From a virus (Duplodnaviria > Heunggongvirae > Uroviricota > Caudoviricetes), in the IMG/VR virus record IMGVR_UViG_3300021963_000032: a stretch of 64,000 nucleotides of DNA. One strand, written 5' to 3'. Position numbers and translations under genes: made by a program. Of this stretch, positions 12,413-37,117 are shown piece by piece. How positions within the stretch are numbered: position 1 is the first letter of the stretch; each line of letters begins with the position of its first letter. A model generated the notes under the pieces. It was not told the origin of the DNA and searched no databases. It saw only the letters and a program-made list of their open reading frames with translations.

Positions 12413-12539
12413 CTAAATCAATACAGAGTTGAATGATACGAGCCTCCAAAGTTCGAAAGGAGTCATGGTTTGATTGAAGCGAGCAACTGTGCGCTATACA
12501 AAAAGTGTTTGCATTCGGCAAATACTACACAGTTGACAA

Positions 12540-12612: not shown

Positions 12613-12681
12613 CTATTTTTTAATCACTAAAACCCCAGAAATTATGGAAAGTGACAAGAGCGACAAGAGTCGCAAACAGCC

Positions 12682-12755
12682 GATCTCGTAGCTCAGTTGG
12701 CTAGAGCACCTCACTTTTAATGAGGGAGTCGTGGGTTCGAGCCCCACCGGGATCA
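12682..12755 (+). tRNA. tRNA-Lys(TTT)
   Basis: Acceptor GATCTCG/CGGGATC, anticodon loop CTTTTAA. Confidence 0.7.
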
Positions 12756-12764
12756 CAAACAAAT

Positions 12765-12837
12765 GCTCCTTTAGCTCAGTTGGTAGAGCGCTGCCCTTAC
12801 ATGGCAGATGTCGCAAGTTCGAGCCTTGCAGGGAGTA
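12765..12837 (+). tRNA. tRNA-Val(TAC)
   Basis: Anticodon stem CTGCC/GGCAG, loop CTTACAT. Confidence 0.65.
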
Positions 12838-12847
12838 CAAATAATAT

Positions 12848-12931
12848 GCCGTAGCGCTGAAGTTGGAGAGTCGGGGCAGACTGTAAATCTGTTGTCGTAA
12901 GGCTGAGTAGGTTCGAATCCTACCTGCGGCA
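12848..12931 (+). tRNA. tRNA-Tyr(GTA), long variable arm
   Basis: Acceptor GCCGTAG/CTGCGGC, anticodon loop CTGTAAA, T-arm GTAGGTTCGAATCCTAC. Confidence 0.65.
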
Positions 12932-12936
12932 CAATT

Positions 12937-13008
12937 GGACAAGTAGCTCAGGGGTAGAGCAAGCGACTGTTAATCGCTGGGTCGGAGGTTCGATCCCTCC
13001 CTTGTCCG
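12937..13008 (+). tRNA. tRNA-Asn(GTT)
   Basis: Acceptor GGACAAG/CTTGTCC, anticodon loop CTGTTAA. Confidence 0.7.
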
Positions 13009-13166
13009 CAATGATATAATGTTGGGTTTCCTGGTAGTAACGGTATTAACCATGGTAAGTAAGCTACAAGATTCTAGTAATAAGCACCAGATGGATTCCG
13101 TGCGACTAAAGTATCAATAGTTTTAAGGGTGGCTCTAGTTCTATAAAAACGTAATTGCCTCCACCA

Positions 13167-13240
13167 GCGCTTATAGCTCAATTGGTTAGAGCACCCGCCT
13201 GATACGCGGAAGGTTATTGGTTCGATTCCAGTTAAGCGCA
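13167..13240 (+). tRNA. tRNA-Ile(GAT)
   Basis: Acceptor GCGCTTA/TAAGCGC, anticodon loop CTGATAC. Confidence 0.7.
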
Positions 13241-13298
13241 CAAAAAGAGGAATAACTAGTGTGGGTGCCTCAACTGCTGCAGCAGTACCACACTCAAT

Positions 13299-13384
13299 GG
13301 AGAGTAAACCTTGATGGCGATAGGGCTTGCCTGCTAAGCAATGTGTACCCGTAAGGGTATTTGGTTCGATTCCAATGCTCTCCG
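13299..13384 (+). tRNA. Probable type II tRNA, tentatively Ser(GCT)
   Basis: Acceptor GGAGAGT/GCTCTCC, T-arm TTGGTTCGATTCCAA, candidate anticodon loop CTGCTAA. The D-arm is atypical. Confidence 0.4.
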
Positions 13385-13389
13385 CAGCA

Positions 13390-13460
13390 TGCCGTAGGTC
13401 CTGGGTGGACGAGGTGGGCTCATATCCTGCTTTGGATTGGTTCGAACCCAATATACGGTA
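13390..13460 (+). tRNA. tRNA-Met/Ile2 family (CAT), copy 1
   Basis: Anticodon loop CTCATAT, T-arm ATTGGTTCGAACCCAAT. The acceptor pairing is slightly irregular. Confidence 0.5.
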
Positions 13461-13470
13461 CAACAAAGGT

Positions 13471-13635
13471 ATGATGAATATGAAAAAAGTAATAACAGGA
13501 AGTTTCGAATCATCGAGAGATGTACTTCGAGGAAAGGCTCCATCGCCCAAAGGACGATTGGACTGGCGTGGTCAGGCCGTACAAGTTTACAACAAGTTCG
13601 CTAAGAAGTTGACTAAACGTAAGTCAGCGTTGTGA
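13471..13635 (+). CDS. Small basic protein (54 aa) embedded in the tRNA array
   Basis: ATG preceded by AAAGG. The product is MMNMKKVITGSFESSRDVLRGKAPSPKGRLDWRGQAVQVYNKFAKKLTKRKSAL. A strong terminator follows immediately. Confidence 0.35.
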   Translation: MMNMKKVITGSFESSRDVLRGKAPSPKGRLDWRGQAVQVYNKFAKKLTKRKSAL

Positions 13636-13640
13636 ATTGA

Positions 13641-13670
13641 CCCTCCCCACTTACGGAGTGGGGTTTTTTT
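13641..13670 (+). terminator. Rho-independent terminator
   Basis: CCCTCCCCACttacgGAGTGGGG followed by TTTTTTT. Confidence 0.65.
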
Positions 13671-13674
13671 AAAT

Positions 13675-13748
13675 GGTGGTTGTAGCTCAATCGGAAGAGC
13701 GCCAGATTGTGATTCTGGAGGTAGTGGGATCGAAACCCACCATTCACC
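13675..13748 (+). tRNA. tRNA-His(GTG) with encoded G-1
   Basis: Anticodon stem CCAGA/TCTGG, loop TTGTGAT. An extra 5' G pairs with the C discriminator. Confidence 0.6.
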
Positions 13749-13754
13749 CAATAT

Positions 13755-13840
13755 GCCTCGGTGGTGAAATTGGTAAACACGCTGGATTTAAGCTCCAGTG
13801 GGCAGTAATGTCCTTGCGGGTTCGAGCCCCGCCTGAGGTA
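13755..13840 (+). tRNA. tRNA-Leu(TAA), type II
   Basis: Anticodon stem CTGGA/TCCAG, loop TTTAAGC, long variable arm, T-arm GCGGGTTCGAGCCCCGC. Confidence 0.65.
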
Positions 13841-13989
13841 CTAAAGATGATACAAAGCGTAGAATGGTAAGCGTGGAGAGACGTGGCGCAAGGGTACACA
13901 CTAAGGATAAGCAATCAGTGCTCAACTCTCTAATGGTGTGTGAAGCCACTGAGGCAAGATTCCTGATAAAGCCATTTATCATCTTTTTT

Positions 13990-14061
13990 GCCCACATAGT
14001 TCAATGGATAGAACGTCCGGCTACGAACCGGGAGATAGGAGTTCGAATCTCTTTGAGGGTA
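13990..14061 (+). tRNA. tRNA-Arg(ACG)
   Basis: D-arm GTTCAATGGATAGAAC, anticodon stem TCCGG/CCGGG, loop CTACGAA. Confidence 0.6.
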
Positions 14062-14066
14062 CAAAT

Positions 14067-14139
14067 GCCCCTATAGTTCAACTGAATAGAACATCCCCCT
14101 TCTAAGGGGAAGATTGGAGTTTGACTCTCTGTGGGGGTA
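14067..14139 (+). tRNA. tRNA-Arg(TCT)
   Basis: Anticodon stem TCCCC/GGGGA, loop CTTCTAA. The T-loop TTTGACT is atypical. Confidence 0.5.
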
Positions 14140-14176
14140 CGATCCGATGTGTGATCCGAGCTAGGTCGGATAATTT

Positions 14177-14249
14177 ACTCCAGTAGCTCAGTTGGTAGAG
14201 CACCGGATTCCAAATCCGGGTGTCGGAGGTTCGAGTCCTTCCTGGTGTG
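14177..14249 (+). tRNA. tRNA-Trp(CCA)
   Basis: Anticodon stem CCGGA/TCCGG, loop TTCCAAA, T-arm GGAGGTTCGAGTCCTTC. Confidence 0.65.
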
Positions 14250-14317
14250 CATAAGACGGGAGGCGAGTGTTGAGGGTACAACCGTTAGGATACCTCAGCC
14301 AAGTCCTCCCCGAAGAA

Positions 14318-14390
14318 GGACAGGTAGCTCAGTCGGTAGAGCACGGCGCTGAAGACGCTGGTGTCGGGGGTTCGAATCCCTCTCTGTCCA
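14318..14390 (+). tRNA. tRNA-Phe(GAA)
   Basis: Acceptor GGACAGG/TCTGTCC, anticodon loop CTGAAGA. Confidence 0.7.
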
Positions 14391-14395
14391 CAAAT

Positions 14396-14465
14396 GCTCA
14401 GGTTGATCTTGGAGGTCGGTAGGTCTGCAAAACTTACAGAGTTGGTTCGATTCCAACCTTGAGCT
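14396..14465 (+). tRNA. tRNA-Cys(GCA), compact 70 nt
   Basis: Acceptor GCTCAGG/CTTGAGC, anticodon stem TAGGT/ACTTA, loop CTGCAAA, short D-arm. Confidence 0.55.
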
Positions 14466-14509
14466 CAAAAATAATTGTTCATAACTTTGTAATTATTTTG
14501 ATATAACTG

Positions 14510-14546
14510 TTGCAAACACCACAACAATGGAGTATCTTTAGGTATA
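14510..14546 (+). promoter_or_regulatory. Conserved phage promoter motif (TTGCA...TATCTTTAGGTATA) driving the tRNA sub-cluster
   Basis: CTGTTGCAAACACC...AGTATCTTTAGGTATAAG, preceded by the GTTCATAACTTT upstream element. Confidence 0.55.
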
Positions 14547-14591
14547 AGAAAGAGCAAAGGAGTTCATTGACGTAGTGGTAAACAAACAAAC

Positions 14592-14679
14592 AGTCAGGTG
14601 ATAGTAATTGGTAACTGCGGTGGTGCGTTAAGAGCGCTTAATATCCATCGGATTACAGGTTCGAGTCCTGTCCTGACTA
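14592..14679 (+). tRNA. Non-canonical tRNA-like element, 88 nt, anticodon unresolved (possibly Leu-like type II)
   Basis: Perfect acceptor AGTCAGG/CCTGACT and canonical T-arm ACAGGTTCGAGTCCTGT. The internal region (GGTGG...21 nt...CCATC) does not fold into a standard anticodon arm. Confidence 0.4.
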
Positions 14680-14699
14680 TAAAAAAGTTAACAAAAGTG

Positions 14700-14730
14700 T
14701 TGACTTATCGAAACAAAAGGAGTATATTTA
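14700..14730 (+). promoter_or_regulatory. Promoter variant (TTGAC...TATATTTA) with duplicated leader GTTCATTGACATAGTGGTAAACAAACAAAC
   Basis: Near-duplicate of the 14510-14591 promoter-leader unit, placed upstream of the second tRNA sub-cluster. Confidence 0.5.
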
Positions 14731-14765
14731 TAAAAGTTCATTGACATAGTGGTAAACAAACAAAC

Positions 14766-14847
14766 GCGCGAGTGGTGGAATTGGTAGACACGCCGGATTT
14801 AGGATCCGGTGCCGAAGGGTTTGAGGGTTCGAGTCCCTCCTTGCGTA
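14766..14847 (+). tRNA. tRNA-Leu(TAG), type II
   Basis: Anticodon stem CCGGA/TCCGG, loop TTTAGGA, long variable arm, T-arm GAGGGTTCGAGTCCCTC. Confidence 0.65.
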
Positions 14848-14943
14848 CAAAAAGATCAACTAGTCACTGTAATCAATCAGTGGGCGTCAGTAAGTATTCT
14901 GAGCGACGTTTAAATCCTGACAGCAATGTTGATTTTTTATTTT

Positions 14944-15017
14944 GCAGGCATAGCTCAATTGGCTAGAGCACTAGCCTTCCAAGCTGGGGGTTGTGGGTTC
15001 GAGTCCCACTGCCTGCT
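14944..15017 (+). tRNA. tRNA-Gly(TCC), with 3' CCA encoded
   Basis: Acceptor GCAGGCA/TGCCTGC, anticodon loop CTTCCAA, T-arm GTGGGTTCGAGTCCCAC followed by TCCA. Confidence 0.7.
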
Positions 15018-15022
15018 CCAAT

Positions 15023-15096
15023 GGGGGATTAGCTCAGCTGGCTAGAGCACTGCACTTGCACTGCAGGGGTCAACGGTTCGAATCCGTTATCCTCCA
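15023..15096 (+). tRNA. tRNA-Ala(TGC)
   Basis: Anticodon stem CTGCA/TGCAG, loop CTTGCAC, T-arm AACGGTTCGAATCCGTT. Confidence 0.7.
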
Positions 15097-15101
15097 CAAT
15101 T

Positions 15102-15173
15102 GGTCCATTGGTGTAGTGGCTAACATACCACCCTGTCACGGTGGTGCCGCGAGTTCGATTCTCGCATGGACCG
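15102..15173 (+). tRNA. tRNA-Asp(GTC)
   Basis: Acceptor GGTCCAT/ATGGACC, anticodon loop CTGTCAC. Confidence 0.7.
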
Positions 15174-15183
15174 CAAACAATAC

Positions 15184-15255
15184 GCTGCCATCGTCTAACG
15201 GTTAGGACCTATGGTTTTCATCCATAAAATCGGAGTTCGATTCTCCGTGGCAGTA
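15184..15255 (+). tRNA. tRNA-Glu(TTC)
   Basis: TCGTCTAACGGTTAGGAC D-arm, anticodon stem TATGG/CCATA, loop TTTTCAT. Confidence 0.7.
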
Positions 15256-15350
15256 CAAAGATCGGAGTAATTAACCGATCCTAACAAGTAAGTATGCATA
15301 TAGCTTAAAGAGATTTGACGTCACTAATTTCTGCATGCTTCTCTTGATTA

Positions 15351-15426
15351 ACTACTTATGGTGTAAATTGGTTTGCACACGGGTCACACGGCCCGAGGGT
15401 TATAGGTTCGAGTCCTATGGGTAGTT
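15351..15426 (+). tRNA. tRNA-like with atypical anticodon loop, identity unresolved
   Basis: Acceptor ACTACTT/GGGTAGT and T-arm ATAGGTTCGAGTCCTAT are canonical. The anticodon stem CGGG/CCCG encloses a 6- or 8-nt loop (T)CACACG(G). Confidence 0.35.
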
Positions 15427-15432
15427 CAACAT

Positions 15433-15505
15433 AGCGGGGTGGAGAAGATGGTATTCTCGGCGGGCTCATAACCCGAGGACGCTGGTTCGAGTCCGGCCCC
15501 CGCTA
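15433..15505 (+). tRNA. tRNA-Met/Ile2 family (CAT), copy 2
   Basis: Acceptor AGCGGGG/CCCCGCT, D-stem GAGA/TCTC, anticodon loop CTCATAA. Confidence 0.6.
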
Positions 15506-15601
15506 CAAATACGTAAACCTAAGTACCCATACCGCTCACGGTGGGCTAAGTAAGATACAATTTCGTACTGCGGGAAGTAGAATGCTTAGGAGCGTGTTTA
15601 C

Positions 15602-15684
15602 GGCTAGGAGTGTAAAAGGCGTCGGTGCTGATTCCATCTGTTGAAGATGGTTGCTCATTGTAGGTTCGAATCCTATCCTAGCTG
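15602..15684 (+). tRNA. Putative type II tRNA-like element, anticodon unresolved
   Basis: Acceptor GGCTAGG/CCTAGCT and T-arm GTAGGTTCGAATCCTAT. The internal hairpin CCATCtgttgaaGATGG could be the anticodon arm (TTG) or the variable arm. Confidence 0.3.
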
Positions 15685-15689
15685 CAGAG

Positions 15690-15763
15690 GGTCCTTTAGC
15701 TCAGTTGGTTAGAGCAGCTCGCTCATAACGAGAAGGTCCCAGGTTCGAATCCTGGATGGACCA
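15690..15763 (+). tRNA. tRNA-Met/Ile2 family (CAT), copy 3
   Basis: GCTCAGTTGGTTAGAGC D-arm, anticodon loop CTCATAA, T-arm CCAGGTTCGAATCCTGG. Confidence 0.6.
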
Positions 15764-15772
15764 CACAAAAAG

Positions 15773-17664: not shown

Positions 17665-19650
17665 ATGAAACATATTAGTACAATTCTATTTGTATTGATC
17701 TTTGCTACAAGCTTTGGTCAGTACTGTCCTGCATTAGGACCAGATCAACTCCTTCCATGTGGGTTAGGAACAACGACGTTAACAGCTGACCTATCTCAGT
17801 GTGGACCTGGAGGACCTTCTCCAAAACAAACCACGGATTACCTAGTTAGTAGTATTCCCTATGTTGCTCAAGCTAACACGGGTACTAACATATTCATGAC
17901 AGATGATTCTCAGCAAGGACCTTTTAATATAGGATTCAACTTTTGCTTCTTCGGATCAACCTATACTCAATTCTATATAGGATCGAATGGTTGGATATCT
18001 TTCTCAGGAGGGCAGCCAACTACATTTACCTCTTCACCAATTCCAACAGCAAACCCTCTAGTACCTAAGAATTGTGTAATGGGGCCATGGCAGGATTGGC
18101 ATCCAGGACTTGGTGGTCAGATTAAATATCAAACAACTGGAGTAGCTCCATGTAGAAAATTAACAGTAAGTTGGATAGGTGTACCTATGTTTAGTTGTAC
18201 GGGAAACCAAGGAACATTCCACATTGTGGTCTATGAGTCAACTAACGCAATCGAAACCTATATTCAAGATAAACCTGCATGTACACAGTGGCAAGGTGGT
18301 ACCGCAGTAGAAGGTATACACAATACAGCTGGTTCAATAGGGATAGCCGTTCCTGGAAGAAACTCCACAGCATGGACTGCAAACAATGATGCTTGGAGGT
18401 GGACTCCAAATGGTCCTCTAGTTAATCCAGTACTGACTTGGTACCAGGTAGGTAATCCAGTAGCTATTGGAACTGGACCATCTATAACAGTCACACCACC
18501 CGCTGCAGGTGCTCAGTATACTTGTCGTTTTGTTTATCCTATTTGTAATGTAGGATGGGCTACTTGTAATGCTTTTGCAGGATTGGGACCAGATACAGTA
18601 TTCGTACAACCTGGACCTCCGTATCCAGTAGTAAGTCCAATTGCAGGTTCAGATACTCTATGTTCGTATTCAACAAATGAGCTATATACAATTATCAATC
18701 AACCTGGAGTAAATTACTTATGGGACGCTGTTGGGACTATTACGTCAGGTCAAGGTGCAGATAGCATTACTATTGATTGGAATGCAATTGCTCCAGGATT
18801 CATTCCTGGTGGGGTTATGGTTACTCCGGAAGCAAATGGTTGTGTAGGTGCACCTGCTTCTTTTGATTTATTTATACTAGATGTTGTTCCAATTATTCAA
18901 CCGATAGGACCATTCTGCGAATATGACGATAGCACTCAGCTAGTTGGTAATCCATTAGGTGGAGCATTCTCAGGAGTAGGAGTTTCTAATACTTACTTCA
19001 ATCCACAAAACGCAGCTGGCGTTGATACAATTACTTATACATACACTCTCAGTGGCTGTACGTTTGATACAACAACTCTTGTTACCGTGTACCCAAAACC
19101 TACCTTAGATTCTATTACTCCTCACAATACATTCTTTGAGATATGTGAGCTAGAAGTGGCCACAATAACATGGGATGCAGATGGTTATCCTGCAAATGGA
19201 TATACGGAGTGGACTTGGTTAGGACAGAATACTCAGCAACCATTATTATCTGTAACAGTACCTTGGGATTCAGCAGGAACATATAATGTGTCTGCAGTCT
19301 ATTGGGCTAATGGTTGTGTGTCGGATCCACAAACTGCTTACATCACAGTAATTCAGTGTCCGGAAACTTTATTCTATATTCCTAATTCATTTACACCAGA
19401 TGGTAACGAATGGAATCAAGTATGGCAACCTATAATTACTAGTGGGATAGATCCATACAACTATCAGGTGTTGGTGTACAATCGTTGGGGAGAAGTTGTA
19501 TTTGAGTCTCACGACATTGAAGTTGGATGGGATGGAACTTATAAAGGTAGGCCATGCATGGAAGGTGTATACTTTTACATAGTAAGCTGTACCGATACTA
19601 AAACAGCTAAGAAGTTTAACCTACAAGGACATATTTCTTTATTAAAATAA
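17665..19650 (+). CDS. Secreted Cys-rich protein with T9SS type-B C-terminal sorting domain (gliding-motility-associated CTD)
   Basis: Signal peptide MKHISTILFVLIFATSFGQ. The C-terminus FYIPNSFTPDGNEWNQVW...YNRWGEVVFES...GWDGTYKG matches the TIGR04131-like CTD motif. Confidence 0.55.
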   Translation: MKHISTILFVLIFATSFGQYCPALGPDQLLPCGLGTTTLTADLSQCGPGGPSPKQTTDYLVSSIPYVAQANTGTNIFMTDDSQQGPFNIGFNFCFFGSTYTQFYIGSNGWISFSGGQPTTFTSSPIPTANPLVPKNCVMGPWQDWHPGLGGQIKYQTTGVAPCRKLTVSWIGVPMFSCTGNQGTFHIVVYESTNAIETYIQDKPACTQWQGGTAVEGIHNTAGSIGIAVPGRNSTAWTANNDAWRWTPNGPLVNPVLTWYQVGNPVAIGTGPSITVTPPAAGAQYTCRFVYPICNVGWATCNAFAGLGPDTVFVQPGPPYPVVSPIAGSDTLCSYSTNELYTIINQPGVNYLWDAVGTITSGQGADSITIDWNAIAPGFIPGGVMVTPEANGCVGAPASFDLFILDVVPIIQPIGPFCEYDDSTQLVGNPLGGAFSGVGVSNTYFNPQNAAGVDTITYTYTLSGCTFDTTTLVTVYPKPTLDSITPHNTFFEICELEVATITWDADGYPANGYTEWTWLGQNTQQPLLSVTVPWDSAGTYNVSAVYWANGCVSDPQTAYITVIQCPETLFYIPNSFTPDGNEWNQVWQPIITSGIDPYNYQVLVYNRWGEVVFESHDIEVGWDGTYKGRPCMEGVYFYIVSCTDTKTAKKFNLQGHISLLK

Positions 19651-21220: not shown

Positions 21221-22456
21221 ATGATAAAACTAAAGAACATACTAAACGAAGTACTCGAAGAAGGAGTATATGATCCAGGAATCCTAAAATGCGTATTCCT
21301 AGCAGGTGGGCCTGGATCAGGTAAAACAACAGCAGCAAATCAATTACTTGGAGTAAGCTTTGATAGCTTTTCTGAGGCTGGACTAAAACCAGTTAATAGT
21401 GACAAATTCTTTGAGTTCATCTTAAAGTCTCGTAACCTACCAACTGACCTAGCATCTCTTTCTCCTGAGGACTTTGAGAAGATTACTGTAGGTGCAGACT
21501 CTCCTAGAGAGAAAGCAAAGGGAATGTTGAAGACATCTTATACATACTACGTTGGTGGTCGTTTAGGTCTTATCATTGATGGTACTGGAGATGATCCAAA
21601 CAAAACAAGACAACAAGCAGAGGAATTGCAGAAAGTGTTTGGCTACGATGTAGCTATGGTGTTTGTTAACACATCACTAGAAAAAGCGATTGATAGAAAT
21701 AACAATCGAGAAAGAAAGCTACCTGCTGATCTTGTAACTAAGATCTGGAATGAAGCACAGAAAGCAAAGGAAGTACATAAGCGCTTCTTTGGTAACAACT
21801 TCTACGAAGTACTTAACGAGAAGGATAGTGCACCAGGACAGCCATTAGATATCAACCCACAAGTACAAAAGTTAGTACGTTCGTTCATACAAAAGCCAGT
21901 TCAGAACCCAGTAGGTAAAGAGTGGATCAAGAAAGCACTTGCTGCAAAGTCTTCTATGAGTGAAGCAGAAAATCCTCAGTATGAGATATTCTGTGATATG
22001 GATGGAGTGCTTTGTGATTTTGTTAAGCAGTGGAAGAAATACTTCAAAGGAGAAGCTCCTGACGATATGAGACATCGAATTGGTAAACCAGAGTTTGATG
22101 AGTACCTAGATTCTATGGACAGAAAGTTTTGGAATACTATGGAGTGGATGCCAGGAATGCAAAGAGTGTGGAATGTTATTAGCAACTATGGTGCAGGTGC
22201 TAAAATACTTAGTGCCCCTGCCGAGAACCCAGACTCACCTGCAGGTAAGTTGGATTGGGTAAAGAAGAATCTTTCAAATCCAGAAGTGATCTTCCGCAAG
22301 TCAACACAAAAGCAAGAGTTCTCAGGACCTAACAAGATCCTTATTGATGACCTCAAAAGAAATATTGATCAGTGGAGAGCTAGAGGAGGAATTGGAATAC
22401 ACCACATCAGCGTGGAGAAGACACTAAAAGAACTAAGTGATTTAGGAATAAAATAA
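21221..22456 (+). CDS. Fusion of a P-loop (d)NMP kinase-like domain and a HAD 5'(3')-deoxyribonucleotidase-like domain
   Basis: N-terminal FLAGGPGSGKTT Walker A. C-terminal FCDMDGVLCDF HAD motif I (compare DMDGVLADF of NT5C-type enzymes). Confidence 0.5.
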   Translation: MIKLKNILNEVLEEGVYDPGILKCVFLAGGPGSGKTTAANQLLGVSFDSFSEAGLKPVNSDKFFEFILKSRNLPTDLASLSPEDFEKITVGADSPREKAKGMLKTSYTYYVGGRLGLIIDGTGDDPNKTRQQAEELQKVFGYDVAMVFVNTSLEKAIDRNNNRERKLPADLVTKIWNEAQKAKEVHKRFFGNNFYEVLNEKDSAPGQPLDINPQVQKLVRSFIQKPVQNPVGKEWIKKALAAKSSMSEAENPQYEIFCDMDGVLCDFVKQWKKYFKGEAPDDMRHRIGKPEFDEYLDSMDRKFWNTMEWMPGMQRVWNVISNYGAGAKILSAPAENPDSPAGKLDWVKKNLSNPEVIFRKSTQKQEFSGPNKILIDDLKRNIDQWRARGGIGIHHISVEKTLKELSDLGIK

Positions 22457-22483: not shown

Positions 22484-22604
22484 AATTAGGTATATTAATA
22501 GAAATAAGTATGGGACCATTAGAAGGACAATTACATTTATTAGCAATCACCGTTACGGTAGTATGTATAGTGGTTCATTTAATTTTTGCAAACAAAAACA
22601 AGGA

Positions 22605-23003
22605 ATGAAGATAGGAGTTATAGCAGGAAACTTTGACGTTATCCACCCAGGTTATATCTATATGTTTGATGAGTGTAAGCAGAACTGCGACCACCTCGTA
22701 GTACTATTGCATACGGATCCTACCATCGAACGTCCCGAAAAGCTCAAGCCAATTTTAACAGTTGAAGAGAGACGTAAAATCTTATTTGCTTTAGATATTC
22801 CTACAGTCATATCTTATGATACGGAAAAGGAGTTGTATTGGATGCTCCACGATGGAGACTATGATGTGCGTTTTCTAGGGGACGATTACATGGGTAAGTC
22901 CTTTACTGGAGATGACCTTAGTATTCCAATTCACTATCTCAACAGAGATCACGGTTGGTCAACAACAAAGTACAAACGATTAATAGCAGATTCACTATGT
23001 TAA
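22605..23003 (+). CDS. Cytidylyltransferase-like nucleotidyltransferase (NMNAT / glycerol-3-P cytidylyltransferase family)
   Basis: GVIAGNFDVIHPGYIYMF matches the (T/H)xGH nucleotidyltransferase signature. Confidence 0.45.
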   Translation: MKIGVIAGNFDVIHPGYIYMFDECKQNCDHLVVLLHTDPTIERPEKLKPILTVEERRKILFALDIPTVISYDTEKELYWMLHDGDYDVRFLGDDYMGKSFTGDDLSIPIHYLNRDHGWSTTKYKRLIADSLC

Positions 23004-23256: not shown

Positions 23257-24540
23257 ATGAATAATCTCGATAAACAGTACACCACACTACTCCAAGACAT
23301 ATTGGACAATGGAGTAACCAAACAAGATCGCACTGGTACTGGAACAGTATCTGTATTTGGTAGACAAATTAGACATAAGATGTCAGAAGGGTTTCCTTTA
23401 CTTACAACTAAGAAGATGCCATTTAAACTTATAGCAACAGAGCTGATGTGGTTCCTTCGTGGTGATACAAACATTAAATTTCTAGTAGACAACAACTGTC
23501 ATATTTGGGATGGCGATGCTTATAAAGCGTATGAACAATGGTATGAACATATGAGTAAAACCACACCATTTACTGTACCTAAAAGGTTTACACAAGATGA
23601 GTTGATTAAGGCAATTAGTCTTGATGAGTATCATGCTAAGCATTTTGGCGAGTTAGGTCCAATTTATGGTAAGCAATGGAGAAAGTGGTCATATGAAGCT
23701 GGTGAAGTTAATAAAGGTGGTATAGACCAAATCGCAAACCTAATCAACGACCTTAAAACAAACCCAGACTCTAGGCGTTTAATGGTTAATGCTTGGAATG
23801 TTGGTGAATTGGATTCAATGGTTCTCCCACCTTGTCATTATGGATTTCAAGTTTATACAAGGGAGTTGAGTTTAGATGAAAGAGGCGAATTATTTAGAAA
23901 AACTTACCCAGATAAATCAGTTAGTGATTTCGCTCCACAAGGAATGGAAGTACAATCACTAAGCCACCAACTATATACAAGATATAATAATGCAAATATT
24001 CCAACCAGAGCAATCTCTTTAATGTGGAATCAGCGTTCAGTAGATACATTCTTAGGTTTACCATTCAACATTGCATCTTATGGATTGTTATTGGAAATAA
24101 TTGCTAAAGCAGTTAATATGGTTCCAGATGAATTGATCGGTAACTTGGGTGATACACATTTGTATTTGGATCATATTGAACAAGCAAAGGAACAGATTGG
24201 CAAAAAACTAGATCTAGATGAACGACAAGCAATGGTCACCCAAGAAATGTTTAATCAAATATATAATGCTGGAGACAGTAGCACATTAACACATTCTGAA
24301 ATTGATCAATGGGACATTCCAAGAATCAAAACCAGAGAACCCTATCCACTACCAACTTTAAATATCAATACAGAATTTTGGCCAACAGAATCTGGAGAGT
24401 GTGGTGTAGGTCCTATTGATGCGACAGCAGTATTTGCAGGGTTCGCTAACGATCATTTCTGCAAGTGTCTGTTGGAAGAAGACTTGCAACTAGGCAACTA
24501 TAAATCACACCCACACATTAAAGCACCTTTATCAAATTAA
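23257..24540 (+). CDS. thyA: Thymidylate synthase family (ThyA / pyrimidine hydroxymethylase-like), enlarged to 427 aa
   Basis: DRTGTGTVSVFG, FPLLTTKKMPFK, ELMWFLRGDTN and the catalytic VLPPCHYGFQVY motif. Large insertions make it longer than canonical 264-316 aa ThyA. Confidence 0.65.
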   Translation: MNNLDKQYTTLLQDILDNGVTKQDRTGTGTVSVFGRQIRHKMSEGFPLLTTKKMPFKLIATELMWFLRGDTNIKFLVDNNCHIWDGDAYKAYEQWYEHMSKTTPFTVPKRFTQDELIKAISLDEYHAKHFGELGPIYGKQWRKWSYEAGEVNKGGIDQIANLINDLKTNPDSRRLMVNAWNVGELDSMVLPPCHYGFQVYTRELSLDERGELFRKTYPDKSVSDFAPQGMEVQSLSHQLYTRYNNANIPTRAISLMWNQRSVDTFLGLPFNIASYGLLLEIIAKAVNMVPDELIGNLGDTHLYLDHIEQAKEQIGKKLDLDERQAMVTQEMFNQIYNAGDSSTLTHSEIDQWDIPRIKTREPYPLPTLNINTEFWPTESGECGVGPIDATAVFAGFANDHFCKCLLEEDLQLGNYKSHPHIKAPLSN

Positions 24541-28595: not shown

Positions 28596-29735
28596 ATGGA
28601 AAATAACAACAGCGTATGTTACGTAGGACTCGTAACAGAAGTAAAAGCCATCGAAGGAGCTGACAACATTGAGTTAGCAGTAGTTGGTGGATGGAATGCA
28701 ATCACTAAGAAAGGTGAATATGCAGTAGGTGATAAAGTTGTAGTAGCTACAACAGATGCAGTCATTCCAGTTGGGTTATCTGACTTAATGCAAGTGACTA
28801 ACTACTTGCGTAAAGGACAACGAGTGAGAACCGTTAAGTTGCGAGGAGTATACTCTGAGTGCTTATTAATCCCATTTAAGTATCTAGCTCCTAAGTCATT
28901 GGAAAAGAATGTTAAGGATGGTGATGACATGATGGAGATCTTAGGAGTAACCAAGTACGAGCCACCGGTAAGACAAGTTCAGTTATCATCTGGAAGAAAG
29001 GTCAAATACAAAGACAATCCAAACTTCCATGTCTACTACAAGTTCCCTAACTTGAAGAATGTAGCTGGGATGTTTACTGAGGAAGATGTAGTTGAGATCA
29101 CTAGAAAGATTCATGGTACCAATGCTCGCTATGGTATTGTCAAAAAGACTAGCTTGTCTTTCATGGACAAAGTTAAAAAGTTCTTCCGCTTAGGTGGAGA
29201 GTGGATTGATTATGAGTATGTGTACGGATCTCACAACGTTGAGAAAGGTTCTGACTCACAAGGATTCTACTCTACAGATGTTTGGAGAACAATTGCTGAC
29301 AAGTACCAAATCAAAGAAAAGCTTTGGACGATTGTTAAGGAAGAGTACACTCCAGAACAGTTGGGAGCAGGGATTGTAATGTATGGTGAAATCTACGGAG
29401 CAGGTATTCAGAAGAATTACGAGTACGGATTAACTGATATGGAGTTTGTCGGGTTCGACTTCTCTGAGGATGGAACATACTTTGCACCACTCACATCACA
29501 ATATGCTATCAAAAACGTGATGGGATTACCATATGTAGAGCAATTGCATTTCGGACCATGGACACAAGAAGTACAAGACAAGTATGTGTTCAATAACTTC
29601 ATCGAAGGTACTAAGGTGCCACACGAGGGAATTGTAATCAAGTACCACACTGGTCAGCGAAACAAAGTAGCTAAAGTAATCAACCCAGACTACTTGATCT
29701 ACGGAGAGAAACACAACGTAGGAGACTCACACTAA
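28596..29735 (+). CDS. ATP-dependent RNA ligase (Rnl2/Rnl5-like) with N-terminal OB-like domain
   Basis: Motif I KIHGTN, motif IV EGIVIK, motif V KVAKVINP. N-terminal VGLVTEVKAIEGADNIELAVVGGWNAI OB-like segment. Confidence 0.6.
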   Translation: MENNNSVCYVGLVTEVKAIEGADNIELAVVGGWNAITKKGEYAVGDKVVVATTDAVIPVGLSDLMQVTNYLRKGQRVRTVKLRGVYSECLLIPFKYLAPKSLEKNVKDGDDMMEILGVTKYEPPVRQVQLSSGRKVKYKDNPNFHVYYKFPNLKNVAGMFTEEDVVEITRKIHGTNARYGIVKKTSLSFMDKVKKFFRLGGEWIDYEYVYGSHNVEKGSDSQGFYSTDVWRTIADKYQIKEKLWTIVKEEYTPEQLGAGIVMYGEIYGAGIQKNYEYGLTDMEFVGFDFSEDGTYFAPLTSQYAIKNVMGLPYVEQLHFGPWTQEVQDKYVFNNFIEGTKVPHEGIVIKYHTGQRNKVAKVINPDYLIYGEKHNVGDSH

Positions 29736-31531: not shown

Positions 31532-32476
31532 ATGTTATTTAGTATTATTTTAATTATCGCAGCTGTAGGGTTTGCTGCATTCAGAATCATCAAAGGACTT
31601 TCTCTAGTGGAGAATGCAGGTTATAATGACGCAACGGCTAAAGCAAAGGGTCGTAGTATGGTTCGGACGGGAATTGTAGTTGCAATTTTAGGATTACTTG
31701 TTGGTATGTTTCAACCATTTTCATTGGAACGAATCGATGCAGGTAATAAAGGTTTGAAAGTAAACTTAACCGGATCAGATAGAGGAGTTGCAAAATACCA
31801 ATATAAAACAGGATGGGTATTGTATAACAGCTGGACTGAACAAGTTAAAGAATTTCCATTATTCCAACAACACATTGAATACGATGCACAAGAAGTAATC
31901 ACTAAGGGAGGTTTCTCGGCTACTATCAAACCAAGCTTCAACTACTCACTACGAGAGGATGCTATTGGAGATATGTTTGTCAACCTACGCTTAGACATTA
32001 AGGAGATCGAGCAGGGCTGGTTAAAGAATGCTATTGTAAGTTCAGTTAATGACGTTGCGAACCGATGGGAAGTAGATGCCATCTTTAATAAACGAGAAGA
32101 GTTTGAAGCAGCAATTATTGTAGAGTGTAATAAAAGAGTATCTAAATGGTTCACTGTATCTCAGTTGCGAACTAATATAGTACCACCAGCATCACTACAA
32201 AAAGCTATCGAGGGTAAGACTAAAGCGGTCCAAGAAGCTCAAGCTGCGCAGCAACGTACACTAGTAGCTCAAGCTGAGGCATTAGAAAAGATGGCTATTG
32301 CTCGAGGTGACTCTGCTAAGACTATCATTAATGCTCAAGCTGCTGCTCTAGCTATGAAGATCAAACAGAAAGAGCTATCTCCACTTTATGTAGAGTTTGT
32401 GAAAGCATCTTCATGGGATGGTAAGTTACCAACTACAGTTGCAGGTAATGCAGGAACATTCTTGAACATCAAATAA
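31532..32476 (+). CDS. SPFH/band-7 (prohibitin-like) domain membrane protein
   Basis: N-terminal TM helix. Ala/Gln-rich C-terminal coiled-coil (QEAQAAQQRTLVAQAEALEKMAIARG) typical of the HflK/C-like family. Confidence 0.4.
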   Translation: MLFSIILIIAAVGFAAFRIIKGLSLVENAGYNDATAKAKGRSMVRTGIVVAILGLLVGMFQPFSLERIDAGNKGLKVNLTGSDRGVAKYQYKTGWVLYNSWTEQVKEFPLFQQHIEYDAQEVITKGGFSATIKPSFNYSLREDAIGDMFVNLRLDIKEIEQGWLKNAIVSSVNDVANRWEVDAIFNKREEFEAAIIVECNKRVSKWFTVSQLRTNIVPPASLQKAIEGKTKAVQEAQAAQQRTLVAQAEALEKMAIARGDSAKTIINAQAAALAMKIKQKELSPLYVEFVKASSWDGKLPTTVAGNAGTFLNIK

Positions 32477-32483: not shown

Positions 32484-32512
32484 CACCTAAATAAATTAAC
32501 CCTCCTAGTGAG
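32484..32512 (+). terminator. Rho-independent terminator
   Basis: CCCTCctagtgAGGG followed by TTTTTTT. Confidence 0.6.
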
Positions 32513-32532
32513 GGTTTTTTTATGTTCAGCTG

Positions 32533-32583: not shown

Positions 32584-33441
32584 ATGATAGTATTAGATTT
32601 AACAAACCCAGTAAACTCCTCAGTGAAGTATCAGGTTAATAAGTTTCCTGACGGACAGCAGTCCATTACTTTACTTAATAGTCATCATTTTTGGACATTG
32701 AAGAATGAGACAATAAAGATCCATAGTCACCTTAATTCGTTCGCAGACTTGGAGTTAATTATTTGTGCTAAGAAGGTTTTAGATAACCTAGGAACTCCTC
32801 AAGTAATACTACACGTTCCATACTTCCTAGGAGCTAGATCGGATCGTAGGTTTGAAGAGGGAACAGTTCACTACCTTAAAGAGGTAATCTGTCCTATTAT
32901 CAACTCACTGAAGTTTGATGCAGTGGTAGTATTAGATCCTCACTCAGATGTACTTGAAGCTTGTCTCGATAACATGGTGAAGATCGACAACCACTTAATT
33001 GTGAAGTCTGCATTGACTGCAATTGACAATAAGAATGATGCACGAGATCGAATCTGCTTAGTGTCACCTGACGCTGGTGCTTACAAGAAGATCTTTGATG
33101 TAGCTAAGAAGTTCGACATTGATAAAGTGATTACAGCTACAAAGGTCCGAGACTTGAAGACCGGTAAGATCTTACATACAGAAGTTCCTACACCAGACAT
33201 GCACAACGACATTAAATATGTGATTGTCGATGACATCTGTGATGGTGGTAGAACTTTCACTGAGATTGCAAAGGCTATCAAAGCTGTTAGACCAACTGCT
33301 AAAATCTATCTAGTAGTAACTCACGGAATCTTCTCAGGTGGTGAAAAGCCTTTGAAAGAGTACTTTGAGCATGTATACACTACTAATAGTGTGAAGGAAG
33401 GTGAGTCAGATTTTGTTACACGATACAACGTATTCAAATGA
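32584..33441 (+). CDS. prs: Ribose-phosphate pyrophosphokinase homolog (PRPP synthetase-like, candidate ADP-ribose pyrophosphokinase)
   Basis: VIVDDICDGGRTFTEIAK matches the PRPP/PRT-binding motif DDxxDTGxT. The N-terminal Prs-like domain is present. The start is set after the promoter. Confidence 0.6.
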   Translation: MIVLDLTNPVNSSVKYQVNKFPDGQQSITLLNSHHFWTLKNETIKIHSHLNSFADLELIICAKKVLDNLGTPQVILHVPYFLGARSDRRFEEGTVHYLKEVICPIINSLKFDAVVVLDPHSDVLEACLDNMVKIDNHLIVKSALTAIDNKNDARDRICLVSPDAGAYKKIFDVAKKFDIDKVITATKVRDLKTGKILHTEVPTPDMHNDIKYVIVDDICDGGRTFTEIAKAIKAVRPTAKIYLVVTHGIFSGGEKPLKEYFEHVYTTNSVKEGESDFVTRYNVFK

Positions 33442-33878
33442 TAGTGTACCACAAAGACTTCTTCATCAACAGATTAGTGAAGGAGTGGCTCAACCACGAG
33501 AAGTTAGTCATCGCATGCGACTTAGATGACACAATCATTCCATACAACCTAGAGCTAACACAAAGCTGTGCAGATGTTGTTGAGTTGATACTAGATTGCC
33601 AAAAGGAAGGAATTGTATTCATTATCAATACAGCACGAGAACGATCCAAGTTGATTGATAGTGTAGGCCAAGTAGAGGATTTAGGAATCAAAGTACACTC
33701 AGTTAACGAAATGCCTCCCTATTGGACACTACCAATTGGAGTATCAGGTAAAGTGTATGCTAACATATTCTTAGACGATCGAGGTGGATTGGAATGTACC
33801 AAGCACCAATTGCGTAAAGCATTGGAGATAGTAAAACAGATAAGAGAACAACAAAAAATACAGAATGAAAGTAATTAA
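33438..33878 (+). CDS. HAD-like hydrolase
   Basis: VIACDLDDTIIP matches the DxDxT motif. Confidence 0.4.
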   Translation: MIVYHKDFFINRLVKEWLNHEKLVIACDLDDTIIPYNLELTQSCADVVELILDCQKEGIVFIINTARERSKLIDSVGQVEDLGIKVHSVNEMPPYWTLPIGVSGKVYANIFLDDRGGLECTKHQLRKALEIVKQIREQQKIQNESN

Positions 33879-34341
33879 ACCACCACATGCAATAACTGAA
33901 AGAACGTACGGACATCCAACTATCTTCCTAGCTGGAAGTATTGAGATGGGTAAAGCAGAGGATTGGCAATCACAGATGGAATGGCTATTTCGTGATAAAG
34001 ATGTAACCATATTTAATCCTCGCAGAGAGGAATGGGATTCGTCTTGGACTCAGGACATTGAGAATCCACAATTCTATCAGCAAGTGAATTGGGAGTTGAA
34101 TGCATTAGAGAAGAGTGATCTAATCTTTATGTACTTTGCACCTGGAACGCAATCACCAATATCACTACTAGAGCTTGGACTATTTGCACACACCGGTAAG
34201 TTGGTTGTATGCTGTCCGGAAGGTTTTTGGAGAAAGGGTAATGTTGATATCGTTTGTGATAGATATGGCATTCCAGTATTCTCAAATGTAGTAGCAGCTC
34301 AGGGAGAATTATACAGCAGATGGTTAGAATTATTTAAGTAA
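33865..34341 (+). CDS. Nucleoside 2-deoxyribosyltransferase-like (Rcl/YtoQ family) protein
   Basis: IFLAGSIEMG...FNPRREEWDS...LIFMYF pattern of the deoxyribosyltransferase fold. Confidence 0.45.
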   Translation: MKVIKPPHAITERTYGHPTIFLAGSIEMGKAEDWQSQMEWLFRDKDVTIFNPRREEWDSSWTQDIENPQFYQQVNWELNALEKSDLIFMYFAPGTQSPISLLELGLFAHTGKLVVCCPEGFWRKGNVDIVCDRYGIPVFSNVVAAQGELYSRWLELFK

Positions 34342-34345
34342 ACTG

Positions 34346-34383
34346 TTGCATATTCAAAAAGGAATAAGTAAATTTAGGTATAA
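34346..34383 (+). promoter_or_regulatory. Conserved phage promoter (TTGCA-N22-ATTTAGGTATAA)
   Basis: Family motif upstream of the ATG at 34399. Confidence 0.5.
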
Positions 34384-34398
34384 CAAAAAAAGAGAAAT

Positions 34399-35910
34399 AT
34401 GAATCCATTATTTTTAACAGACGGGTACAAGACGGGACACCACAAGCAGTATCCAGAGGGAACCACATTAGTGTATTCCAACTTCACACCACGTAGCAAC
34501 AAGTATGCTCCGAAGGGTTGTGATAAAGTAGTATCATTTGGTCAGCAATTGATCATGAAACAGATCCACGAAGCCTTTGAGAAAGACTTCTTTCATCAAC
34601 CAAAGGAGCACGTGTGTGCTGAGATCAAACGTGAGTTGTCAATGTACTTAGGTACCGACTATGACGTATCTCACTTCGAGGCGTTATGGGATCTACAGTA
34701 TCTTCCAATCAAAGTGAAAGCTATTAAAGAAGGTACATTGGTTCCAATTAAAGTTCCAGTGTTAACAATCGTCAACACACATCCAGACTTCTATTGGATC
34801 ACTAACTACTTGGAAACAATCATCTCCAATATGTTATGGAAGCCAATGACCTCTGCAACAATTGCACATCAGTACAAGAAAGTACTAGAGCATTGGGCTG
34901 AGAAGACTAACCGTGATGCGATGGAGTTTGTTAATTGGCAGGGACATGACTTCTCTATGAGAGGTATGGATTCTACTGAAGCGGTTATCTCTTCGGGATT
35001 AGGTCACTTAACTTCATTCCTAGGATCTGACTCACTTCCAGCTATCTACGGAGCTAGAAAGTATTACGGTGAGACAGAGTTTGTTGCAGGATCAGTAAAT
35101 GCTACAGAGCACTCAGTAATGTGTGCAGGTACAAAGGATGACGAGGTTGGAACATTCCGTCGCTTGTTGACCGAGACTTATCCATCAGGAATCTTATCAG
35201 TAGTATCTGACACTTGGGATTTGTGGAAAGTATGTACCGAACACGTAGTTACATTAAAAGATGAGATTATGGCTCGTGACGGTAAGTTAGTTATCCGTCC
35301 TGACTCAGGTGACCCAGTAGATATTCTTTGTGGTTTAAATACTAGAAGTGAAGAATTTAAGAAAAATTGGTTGGACACTGCTACTCGAAATAATGGTGAA
35401 TATGAAGGAGTTATTGAAATACTTTGGAATGTATTCGGAGGAACTATCAATGAACAAGGTTACAAAGTACTTGACCCACACATCGGAGCAATCTACGGAG
35501 ACTCAATCACAATCGACAGAGCAAATGAAATCTGTGCTAGATTAGAAGCAAAAGGGTTTGCATCTACAAACGTAGTGCTAGGTATCGGATCATTCACATA
35601 CCAATACAACACACGTGATACATTTGGGTTTGCAATGAAAGCAACCTATGTTGAGGTGAATGGTGAAGGTAGAGAGATATTCAAAGATCCAATCACAGAT
35701 GATGGAACTAAGAAGTCTGCAACCGGATTGCTATGTGTTCAACCACTGAGTGACGGAAGCATCTACTTAATGGACAAAGTTAGTTGGGATAGTGAAGATA
35801 AGGGACTACTCGCTAGCATCTATGTTGATGGTAAGTTCCACAATGTTACTACTCTGTCAGATGTTCGTGCTAACTTGAGAACTGCTAACCTATTAGAAGA
35901 GCTAGTGTAA
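34399..35910 (+). CDS. nadV: Nicotinamide phosphoribosyltransferase homolog (NAMPT/NadV-like, or NARP1 Namat-like)
   Basis: N-terminal LFLTDGYKTGHHKQYP matches the NAMPT TDSYKxxHxxQYP signature. The 503-aa length fits the family. Confidence 0.65.
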   Translation: MNPLFLTDGYKTGHHKQYPEGTTLVYSNFTPRSNKYAPKGCDKVVSFGQQLIMKQIHEAFEKDFFHQPKEHVCAEIKRELSMYLGTDYDVSHFEALWDLQYLPIKVKAIKEGTLVPIKVPVLTIVNTHPDFYWITNYLETIISNMLWKPMTSATIAHQYKKVLEHWAEKTNRDAMEFVNWQGHDFSMRGMDSTEAVISSGLGHLTSFLGSDSLPAIYGARKYYGETEFVAGSVNATEHSVMCAGTKDDEVGTFRRLLTETYPSGILSVVSDTWDLWKVCTEHVVTLKDEIMARDGKLVIRPDSGDPVDILCGLNTRSEEFKKNWLDTATRNNGEYEGVIEILWNVFGGTINEQGYKVLDPHIGAIYGDSITIDRANEICARLEAKGFASTNVVLGIGSFTYQYNTRDTFGFAMKATYVEVNGEGREIFKDPITDDGTKKSATGLLCVQPLSDGSIYLMDKVSWDSEDKGLLASIYVDGKFHNVTTLSDVRANLRTANLLEELV

Positions 35911-36143
35911 TGGAAAGGAGACCAATATTTATAATTCGCTTACCAAAGAATACAACGGAAGGCGATTATATGATAGCCAAAGAGTCTTTAGAAAGGTATG
36001 AAGCCTTATACAAAGACTATCATGTTCTACTAATCGCTGGGAACCAAAACAGACAGACTGAGTTTGAATGCTACGGACATACTCTGACTGATATTGAATT
36101 GGATGAGTTGAAACAAAAAGTACTAAAGCAATATGAAGGATAA
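35910..36143 (+). CDS. hypothetical protein
   Basis: ORF with ATGG overlap. Confidence 0.35.
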   Translation: MERRPIFIIRLPKNTTEGDYMIAKESLERYEALYKDYHVLLIAGNQNRQTEFECYGHTLTDIELDELKQKVLKQYEG

Positions 36144-37069: not shown

Positions 37070-37090
37070 GTACATTAGCCTGACACGTTG

Positions 37091-37117
37091 AAGGAGATCG
37101 AAAGGTCTCCTTTTTTT
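37091..37117 (+). terminator. Rho-independent terminator
   Basis: GGAGATCgaaaGGTCTCC followed by TTTTTTT. Confidence 0.65.

Follow-up and report, generated by a model that had tools for sequence, protein, structure and literature searches.

A probable NARP1 operon with a HAD phosphatase and a PF15891 protein as candidate feeder enzymes

A 64,000-nucleotide stretch of viral DNA (Caudoviricetes; IMG/VR record IMGVR_UViG_3300021963_000032), hereafter the window, carries four tightly packed plus-strand genes at 32584-35910 that encode, in order, a Prs-like protein, a HAD-family protein, a protein of Pfam family PF15891 (NDT2) and a NAMPT-family protein. The locus raises two questions: whether its outer genes serve classical NAD+ salvage or the NAD+ reconstitution pathway NARP1, and what part the two inner genes play. 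Phage 'Prs + Nampt' operons have been found to encode Adps and Namat, the enzymes of NARP1 (Osterman et al. 2024, bioRxiv 10.1101/2024.02.11.579819). We consider it likely that the window holds an operon for NAD+ reconstitution of the NARP1 type, to which two feeder enzymes have been added.

The core gene pair and its pathway

A first-pass annotation, made from the letters of the window alone, had described a Prs-like and a NAMPT-like gene here with a HAD and a nucleoside deoxyribosyltransferase-like gene between them. The open reading frames, the motifs it quoted and the Pfam domains of all four proteins are present:

32584-33441, plus strand: Adps-type Prs homologue, 285 aa, containing YVIVDDICDGGRTF; alternative TTG start at 32533; Pfam Pribosyltran, 3.8e-8
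33438-33878, plus strand: small capless HAD-family phosphatase, 146 aa; Pfam Hydrolase_3, 9.7e-5
33865-34341, plus strand: NDT2, PF15891 (Nuc_deoxyri_tr2 / DrHyd superfamily), 158 aa; Pfam Nuc_deoxyri_tr2, 2e-38
34399-35910, plus strand: NAMPT-family protein, Namat by sequence, 503 aa, starting MNPLFLTDGYKTGHHKQYP; Pfam NAPRTase, 8e-41, and NAMPT_N, 3.9e-8

The Adps and HAD genes overlap by 4 nt and the HAD and NDT2 genes by 14 nt, and a 57-nt gap separates NDT2 from Namat.

Judged by its sequence, the NAMPT-family enzyme is a Namat (nicotinamide ADP-ribose transferase). It carries GSFTYQYNTRD, the exact SCH selectivity-clamp motif, identical to that of SpbetaL1 Namat. The published consensus is GSxPhixPhixPhiTRD, in which positions 3 and 7 are aromatic, and Nampt lacks the motif (Lan et al., PMC12774641). 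The clamp is present in 141 of 141 Namat-labelled proteins longer than 400 aa from phage and bacterial loci; the NARP2-type Nampt of a related contig (L051) reads GMGGALLQQVDRD at this position. The window protein scores 542 bits against PDB 9w5x/9w5w, compared with 220-231 bits against Xanthomonas and human Nampt. These two entries, deposited as 'Nicotinamide phosphoribosyltransferase', are taken to be SpbetaL1 Namat because their numbering and clamp motif agree with PMC12774641. A HMMER alignment to 9w5x reveals that the equivalents of the catalytic residues F189, R192, D215, R306 and D308, whose roles are described in PMC12774641, are all conserved. The SCL loop, which in Namat supplies an adenine-stacking residue (R, K or Y as its third residue, or K or Y as its fourth), reads S-N-K35-Y36 in the window and T-S-R40 in SpbetaL1; the window loop is compatible with the Lys-then-aromatic pattern, although the aligned loops differ in length.

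The Prs homologue falls below every NCBIfam Prs cut-off (for example, 84.6 bits against 113 for TIGR01251). It scores 239 bits against the phage family phrog_619 and only ~49 bits against solved Prs structures. Its identity to the Adps homologues of the BASEL/phi92 group, the phages that led to the discovery of NARP1, is 39.8% by tblastn and 38% in alignment A1, compared with 23% to E. coli Prs. It groups with phage proteins that are linked to Namat. Of the pyrophosphokinase motifs, ARxDR, DPH and the PRT loop are conserved. Osterman et al. define Adps operationally by a Namat homologue within 10 genes; here the two genes lie three apart in one translationally coupled block, and the Prs homologue thus falls under this definition. 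Sequence comparison strongly indicates that it belongs to the Adps clade, apart from housekeeping Prs, and its predicted product is an ADP-ribose (ADPR) pyrophosphokinase. As an observation on both core proteins, the phage family phrog_12872 (547 positions) matches the N-terminal part of Adps as well as the C-terminal part of Namat, which suggests fused Adps-Namat proteins in some phages.

The first-pass annotation had left two scenarios standing. Under classical NAD+ salvage, the Prs homologue would produce phosphoribosyl pyrophosphate (PRPP), a NadV-type NAMPT homologue would convert it to nicotinamide mononucleotide (NMN), and a host or phage NMN adenylyltransferase would finish NAD+. The Pfam domains of Prs and Nampt are both present, NCBIfam labels the NAMPT homologue a phosphoribosyltransferase, and Namat can make NMN from PRPP in vitro according to the literature. 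The selectivity clamp and the far greater similarity to Namat than to Nampt, the failed Prs cut-offs, and the absence of Nmnat and Nmnat-Nudix homologues from the 64-kb window make this scenario very improbable. Because of the Namat clamp and scores, and because the Prs homologue lies below the Prs cut-offs with phage Adps-type proteins as its nearest relatives, the core pathway is with high confidence NARP1. By analogy with experimentally characterised homologues, Adps would convert ADPR and ATP to ADPR pyrophosphate (ADPR-PP), which Namat would join to nicotinamide to give NAD+.

The NMNAT-like gene proposed near 22605 does not hold up as such. The gene at 22563-23003 encodes a generic cytidylyltransferase-like protein (CTP_transf_like) that scores highest against the models for glycerol-3-P cytidylyltransferase and for domain II of RfaE (46-47 bits), with NMNAT models reaching only ~20 bits. 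A tblastn search with a Nmnat-Nudix query finds no homologue within the window. A NARP2 phage, or one combining NARP1 and NARP2, was considered and rejected on these two results, which cover the 64 kb of the window.

The two inner genes: family, context and possible function

When the HAD protein of the window is aligned with 15 NARP1-linked homologues, the four catalytic motifs DxDxT, T, K and DD show no variation (D28, D30, T32, T65, K105, D113 and D114). The protein falls below the cut-off of the BT0820 family NF046079 (27.7 bits against 165) and matches PDB 2obb weakly (E 0.028). Of 80 contigs retrieved with the window's Namat as seed (the Namat-seeded loci), a HAD gene of this family is found in 15, and in 14 of these it directly adjoins Adps or Namat. 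Bacillus phage ALPS (Herelleviridae, Bastillevirinae) has the order Adps-Namat-HAD, a layout apparently common to the 54 Bacillus phage records with a HAD homologue, and the Crassvirales cr126_1 and DAC17 have Namat-HAD-Adps. HAD homologues also adjoin core genes in many IMG/VR contigs of uncultivated phages. The four-gene order of the window recurs in a Bacteroidota chromosome as NrtR-Adps-HAD-NDT2-Namat (locus L307), and contigs with a 91%-identical NDT2 read cREC_REC-Adps-HAD-NDT2-Namat, with otherwise different flanks. In locus L310, the cREC_REC-domain protein lies at 3239-3631, directly upstream of these four genes; by opening ADPR-cyclic-phosphate, it might act before the HAD phosphatase. 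Iyer et al. discuss the cREC superfamily alongside the 2H superfamily in cyclic-phosphate processing.

A Macro gene of ~172 aa, present in 23 of the 80 Namat-seeded loci, matches Macro domains by profile, including that of the yeast ADPR-1''-phosphate (ADPR-1''-P) phosphatase Poa1p over its entire length, with a profile hit to the ADPR-1''-P phosphatase 6lfu; on these matches, it is the Adpp of the published NARP1-AP pathway. The HAD and Macro genes exclude each other. After dereplication at 95% Namat identity, 65 loci comprise 14 with HAD, 17 with Macro and none with both (Fisher p=0.014), and at 85% identity, 42 groups comprise 13, 9 and none (p=0.038); the loci are not independent by descent, for which dereplication corrects the Fisher tests only in part. 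Pfam identifies no Macro domain in the proteins of the window operon, and tblastn with the Macro-like family of the related loci finds no match in the window.

From its gene context, we regard the HAD protein as somewhat more probably than otherwise a phospho-ADPR (ADPR-1''-P) phosphatase, and its position together with the Macro exclusivity makes a non-orthologous replacement of Adpp the most economical reading. In that role, it would strip the phosphate from blocked ADPR and return ADPR to Adps. The blocked form may be ADPR-1''-P from RES-type NAD+ phosphorolysis or, after ring opening, the ADPR-cyclic-phosphate decay products of ADPR-PP.

The second inner gene is a clear PF15891 member (131 bits, threshold 30), and its sole close relative of solved structure is an uncharacterised Parabacteroides protein (PDB 4mcj, 1.5e-30). 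Structure comparison of the NDT2 AlphaFold model (predicted local distance difference test, 91.5) gives MilB, YtoQ, RCL/DNPH1, BcmB and NDTs as the nearest folds after 4mcj. Of these, MilB and BcmB are CMP N-glycosidases, and RCL/DNPH1 is an N-glycosidase of deoxynucleoside monophosphates (dNMP). NDT2 is not itself a DNPH1/Rcl member, with a template-modelling score to RCL/DNPH1 of only about 0.5 and 18.8 bits against PF05014 (cut-off 28.8). A profile search also yields a marginal match within the retron Ec86 effector, to its NDT-like domain. Within the NDT2 family, E103 in SLLELG, NPRR at 51-54 and R123/K124 are invariant, and several tryptophans are conserved; E103 is the acidic residue that follows the fourth strand of the NDT-like Rossmannoid fold. 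It is the putative equivalent of the catalytic Glu, from a weak alignment to the retron NDT domain and the general features of the family. Fold, family relatives and conserved residues fit an N-glycosidase acting on a phosphorylated ribosyl substrate, which is the predicted activity of NDT2.

The gene neighbourhood ties NDT2 to NARP loci, above all to the NAMPT-family gene. NDT2 is present in 53 of the 80 Namat-seeded contigs. Seeding with NDT2 instead yields 59 dereplicated viral loci, 25 with Adps and/or Namat and 4 with the NARP2 pair within 8 kb; published phage frequencies are 4.3% for NARP1 and 1.1% for NARP2 (Osterman et al.). In most related loci, NDT2 is at most two genes away from Namat or Nampt. 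It directly adjoins a NAMPT-family gene in 41 dereplicated loci and is nearer to that gene than to Adps in 45 of 64. The linkage is kept despite varied orders (Adps-NDT2-Namat, Adps-Namat-NDT2, NDT2-Namat-Adps, Namat-x-NDT2 and others), and NDT2 occurs with both the HAD and the Macro variants. The two inner genes thus recur with NARP loci and are not chance insertions, which bears out the earlier suggestion of a possible undescribed variant.

In the NARP2 cases, Nampt follows immediately downstream of NDT2, with Nmnat-Nudix nearby. L051 (4257-9970) is an example: Nmnat-Nudix and Nampt enclose a radical-SAM protein and an R2K ATP-grasp protein, the PF15891 gene stands immediately upstream of Nampt, and next comes a PHA02142-type RNA ligase, likewise found near the NARP1 operon of the window. 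L035, L046, L069 and L071 are of the same type.

Bacterial genomes extend the association. In a scan of bacterial genomes, NDT2 adjoins Namat in 17 of 61 loci, most of them on Bacteroidota chromosomes, including those of Chitinophaga isolates, and the NAMPT homologues of these loci all carry the Namat motif. NrtR is present in 15 of these 17 NARP1-bearing loci (among loci with the NrtR operon are L274, L284, L250, L252, L257, L254, L273 and L307), and the typical order is NrtR-Adps-NADAR-KptA/Tpt1-Metallophos-(DUF4291)-NDT2-Namat-(Macro), continuing in two loci with a TonB receptor and PnuC. ADPR causes NrtR to leave DNA, and nrtR-prs-nadV operons were noted, unexplained, in 2008 (Rodionov et al., PMC2330246). 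The Bacteroidota operon appears to be an ADPR-inducible NARP1 set amid enzymes that process ADPR derivatives, which may account for the long-standing 'prs-nadV' puzzle posed by NrtR regulons. Phage and bacterial NDT2 proteins linked to NARP1 are at least 70% identical, which suggests cassette exchange between hosts and phages.

The association is easy to miss in cultured phages, since PF15891 is missing from all cultured NARP1 model phages, GenBank holds few homologues (46 phage records), and none of the six inspected lies near NARP genes.

From this context, NDT2 would act on an N-glycoside of no use to the core pathway and free a NARP substrate from it, and we tentatively assign it as a feeder N-glycosidase. 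It may release ADPR from an N-linked ADPR conjugate or signal, an option suggested by its neighbours NADAR, KptA, Macro and phosphoesterases, which process ADPR derivatives and whose domains are discussed in that role by Iyer et al. The NARP2 association is compatible with this option because the Nudix domain of NARP2 also uses ADPR. Alternatively, NDT2 may release nicotinamide from a nicotinamide nucleotide or nucleoside, which fits equally well because NDT2 favours the NAMPT-family gene in both NARP1 and NARP2.

Several findings weigh against the feeder reading of the two genes. The HAD homologues nearest in sequence (54-61% identity, 46 contigs) do not adjoin NARP1, which makes the HAD-NARP1 link look looser in this lineage; they adjoin an AAA ATPase gene, with RNA ligase and HAD_SAK_2 genes in the region, and in L096, the one such locus reaching far enough, the HAD gene lies ~6 kb upstream of SPFH-Adps. 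Roughly half of all NDT2 homologues, in viruses as in bacteria, lack a NARP gene in their vicinity, and NDT2 is therefore not exclusively a NARP partner; in RsoM2USA, CcrColossus, DLP_6, BUDD, Lak-A1 and Lak-B7, no NARP gene lies within 5-15 kb of it. NDT2 genes outside NARP contexts sit among dUTPase, Thy1, DHFR and Que genes; no Pfam family dominates their neighbourhoods, with single cases of Acb1, Tad2-like, DUF4326 and SLOG domains. The placement of NDT2 beside NARP2, which has an NMN intermediate, counts against a simple NMN nucleosidase, an activity that would be futile there.

These findings lend themselves to another account, in which the HAD and PF15891 proteins are unrelated passengers by NARP1, serving the nucleotide pool or the healing of RNA or DNA ends as a 5'- or 3'-phosphatase and a dNMP hydrolase resembling DNPH1, brought together by chance in one early-gene region. 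Genes for nucleotide metabolism and RNA repair are plentiful in the window (a kinase-NT5C fusion, thymidylate synthase, RNA ligase and a phosphoribosyltransferase (PRTase)), and one GenBank record labels a HAD homologue polynucleotide kinase. Chance neighbours would hardly be expected to remain adjacent through many independent rearrangements across phage families and bacteria, to exclude Macro as HAD does, to be translationally coupled with the core genes, or to keep an identical four-gene order in phages whose flanking genes differ as well as on a Bacteroidota chromosome; we regard this account as unlikely. A narrower form, in which the non-adjacent HAD is the end-healing partner of the RNA ligase, was rejected: a ligase lies within three genes upstream in only 6 of the 46 contigs, and the direct neighbour is the AAA ATPase.

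A further account takes the pair as a defence against deoxynucleotide immune signals: HAD would dephosphorylate and NDT2, as a DNPH1-like enzyme, would deglycosylate dNMP-type triggers, such as m6dAMP of Metis or dIMP, the dITP precursor, of Kongming, instead of feeding NARP1, thereby preventing modes of NAD+ cleavage beyond NARP1 repair. The literature describes that Metis splits NAD+ into NMN and AMP, unusable by NARP1, that its HAD protein MisB inactivates m6dAMP through dephosphorylation, and that the Kongming signal is dITP. The characterised folds nearest NDT2 hydrolyse nucleoside 5'-monophosphates, and in non-NARP contexts, NDT2 occasionally stands beside Acb1 or Tad2-like anti-signal genes. 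Signal destruction leaves unexplained both the HAD/Macro exclusivity and the presence of NDT2 inside bacterial ADPR-responsive NrtR operons with NADAR, KptA and Macro, and the PF15891 protein scores below the PF05014/DNPH1 model cut-off. We consider it improbable.

The feeder reading of NDT2 has a bolder form, which we hold doubtful but conceivable: PF15891 would represent a new class of NAD+-economy enzyme, paired with Namat or Nampt in phages and in bacterial operons responsive to ADPR, and cleaving an N-glycosidic product of NAD+ for which no counter-defence is yet known. The substrate might be an immune signal of N-linked ADPR, or else an ADPR or nicotinamide nucleotide that an uncharacterised defence has made by base exchange. 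If true, cleavage by PF15891 would feed ADPR or nicotinamide back into the reconstitution pathway and, with HAD as the Adpp replacement, a four-enzyme 'NARP1-plus' cassette would be traded between Bacteroidota and phages. It would also predict a matching, undiscovered host mode of NAD+ sequestration.

Operon boundaries, neighbours and host setting

The block may extend beyond Namat. Five further features flank it:

31532-32476, plus strand: SPFH/Band 7 protein, directly upstream; Pfam Band_7, 3e-18
32498-32516, plus strand: terminator-like hairpin, 7-bp stem and T-run, between the genes for SPFH and Adps
35910-36143, plus strand: gene with no assigned family, 77 aa; its start overlaps the Namat stop codon
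36133-36861, plus strand: gene with no assigned family, 242 aa; overlaps the 77-aa gene by 11 nt
37090-37113, plus strand: terminator-like hairpin, 10-bp stem and T-run

The two hairpins are the probable upstream and downstream boundaries of the operon, with the proviso that such sites are consensus matches only and their regional total (4 against 4.4 expected) reveals no enrichment. A sigma-70 promoter scan gives fewer matches than in shuffles, this consensus being uninformative for a probable Bacteroidota phage. The 77-aa and 242-aa genes, which have no match in Pfam or PHROG, may be further operon members. The 77-aa gene is kept downstream of Namat in L003/L081 (92% identity) and is also present in L221, there without its 242-aa partner; the 242-aa gene is conserved only among the closest relatives (66% in L003).

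SPFH/Band 7 genes recur in this setting, occurring in 21 of the 80 Namat-seeded loci and in the crAss-like cr126_1, with a 314-aa form upstream of Adps. In five loci, a 623-aa SPFH protein lies between Namat and NDT2. SPFH/Band 7 proteins beside NARP1 are encoded at 7494-9456 in L163/L166/L176 and at 5399-6190 in L147.

The window resembles a segment of a large phage genome, with open reading frames nearly all on one strand. It encodes 23 tRNA genes covering most amino acids (12142-15764), which account for a GC bump to 0.46 at 12-16 kb, and a tmRNA (62106-62486) with the tag peptide ANVELSTWTFEDVMAFVGGELAVAA. A 661-aa protein at 17665-19650 ends in a CHU_C type IX secretion sorting domain, from which the host is probably a member of the Bacteroidota; the closest relatives of the NARP cassette likewise occur in Bacteroidota genomes. 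A megablast search of the region against GenBank phages finds no DNA relatives.

Other nucleotide-related genes lie on either side of the operon. A P-loop kinase fused to an NT5C/HAD-type nucleotidase (Pnkp-like architecture, 21221-22456) and a PHA02142-type RNA ligase (28596-29735) suggest an RNA-repair module a few kb upstream; in related contigs, Thg1, HAD_SAK_2 and YqeY genes are added in this region. The thymidylate synthase at 23257-24540 (427 aa), whose Pfam match at residues 6-317 covers only 225 of 266 profile positions, probably bears an insertion and a C-terminal extension. Of the HPRT reported at 61342, the type I PRTase stands (61342-61872) and the HPRT specificity is less well supported, the HGPRTase model scoring 88 bits against a cut-off of 150.

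Relation to known systems

NAD+ depletion ranks among the strategies that bacteria use most often against phages, NARP1 is the most frequent phage answer known, and each NARP1 accessory gene so far (Adpp, RyDEP) has exposed a host trick beyond plain NARP1. The NARP1 core is already known; as far as found in the literature, HAD and NDT2 are undescribed NARP1 components. The searchable literature holds no paper that combines NARP1 with 'deoxyribosyltransferase' and none mentioning PF15891; the only paper combining NARP1 with 'haloacid' concerns Metis, and none ties either accessory gene to NARP1. The NARP1-AP preprint examined NARP1 neighbours only for Macro Pfams (bioRxiv 10.64898/2026.01.28.702374), and a 2022 survey of viral NAD+/ADPr systems stated that viruses carry only ARC-type DrHyd domains. 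HAD and NDT2 are testable candidates for new steps of NAD+ recycling and may point to unidentified host NAD+-derived molecules.

The window operon resembles published NARP1 in joining Prs-family and NAMPT-family genes in one operon, with identical Namat clamp and catalytic residues and an Adps related to the BASEL proteins. It differs in the HAD and PF15891 genes between the core genes, in the two coupled genes downstream, and in a host that is probably a Bacteroidota member instead of E. coli or Bacillus. NARP2, and the KVP40 system of NadV and NatV (Nampt and Nmnat-Nudix), likewise uses a NAMPT-family enzyme for phage NAD+ supply and, in L051, has PF15891 upstream of Nampt, whereas the enzyme here is of the Namat type and the window contains no Nmnat-Nudix gene.

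The bacterial counterparts are the NrtR prs-nadV operons (PMC2330246) and bacterial NARP1 (PMC12774641); Bacteroidota chromosomes show the arrangement NrtR-Adps-...-NDT2-Namat, with L307 having the exact window order. The window, unlike these operons, lacks NrtR, NADAR, KptA, Metallophos, Macro, the TonB receptor and PnuC, and its cassette sits between phage genes.

NARP1-AP (Adps-Adpp-Namat; Osterman et al. 2026, bioRxiv 10.64898/2026.01.28.702374) also places a small phosphatase gene between Adps and Namat, and loci related to the window have the Poa1p-like Macro gene one to three genes from Adps or Namat. The window phosphatase has a HAD fold, not a Macro fold, and its ADPR-1''-P activity is suggested by position and Macro exclusivity. 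In RyDEP with NARP1 (Lopez Rivera et al. 2026, bioRxiv 10.64898/2026.05.28.727677), a NARP1-adjacent glycosidase similarly makes a NARP1 substrate out of an NAD+-derived molecule; RyDEP itself is an O-glycosidase with a RyR domain that acts on 2'/3'cADPR, whereas NDT2 has an NDT/DrHyd fold from which N-glycosidic cleavage is expected. Adpp and RyDEP thus give the feeder-enzyme idea its precedent in NARP1 operons.

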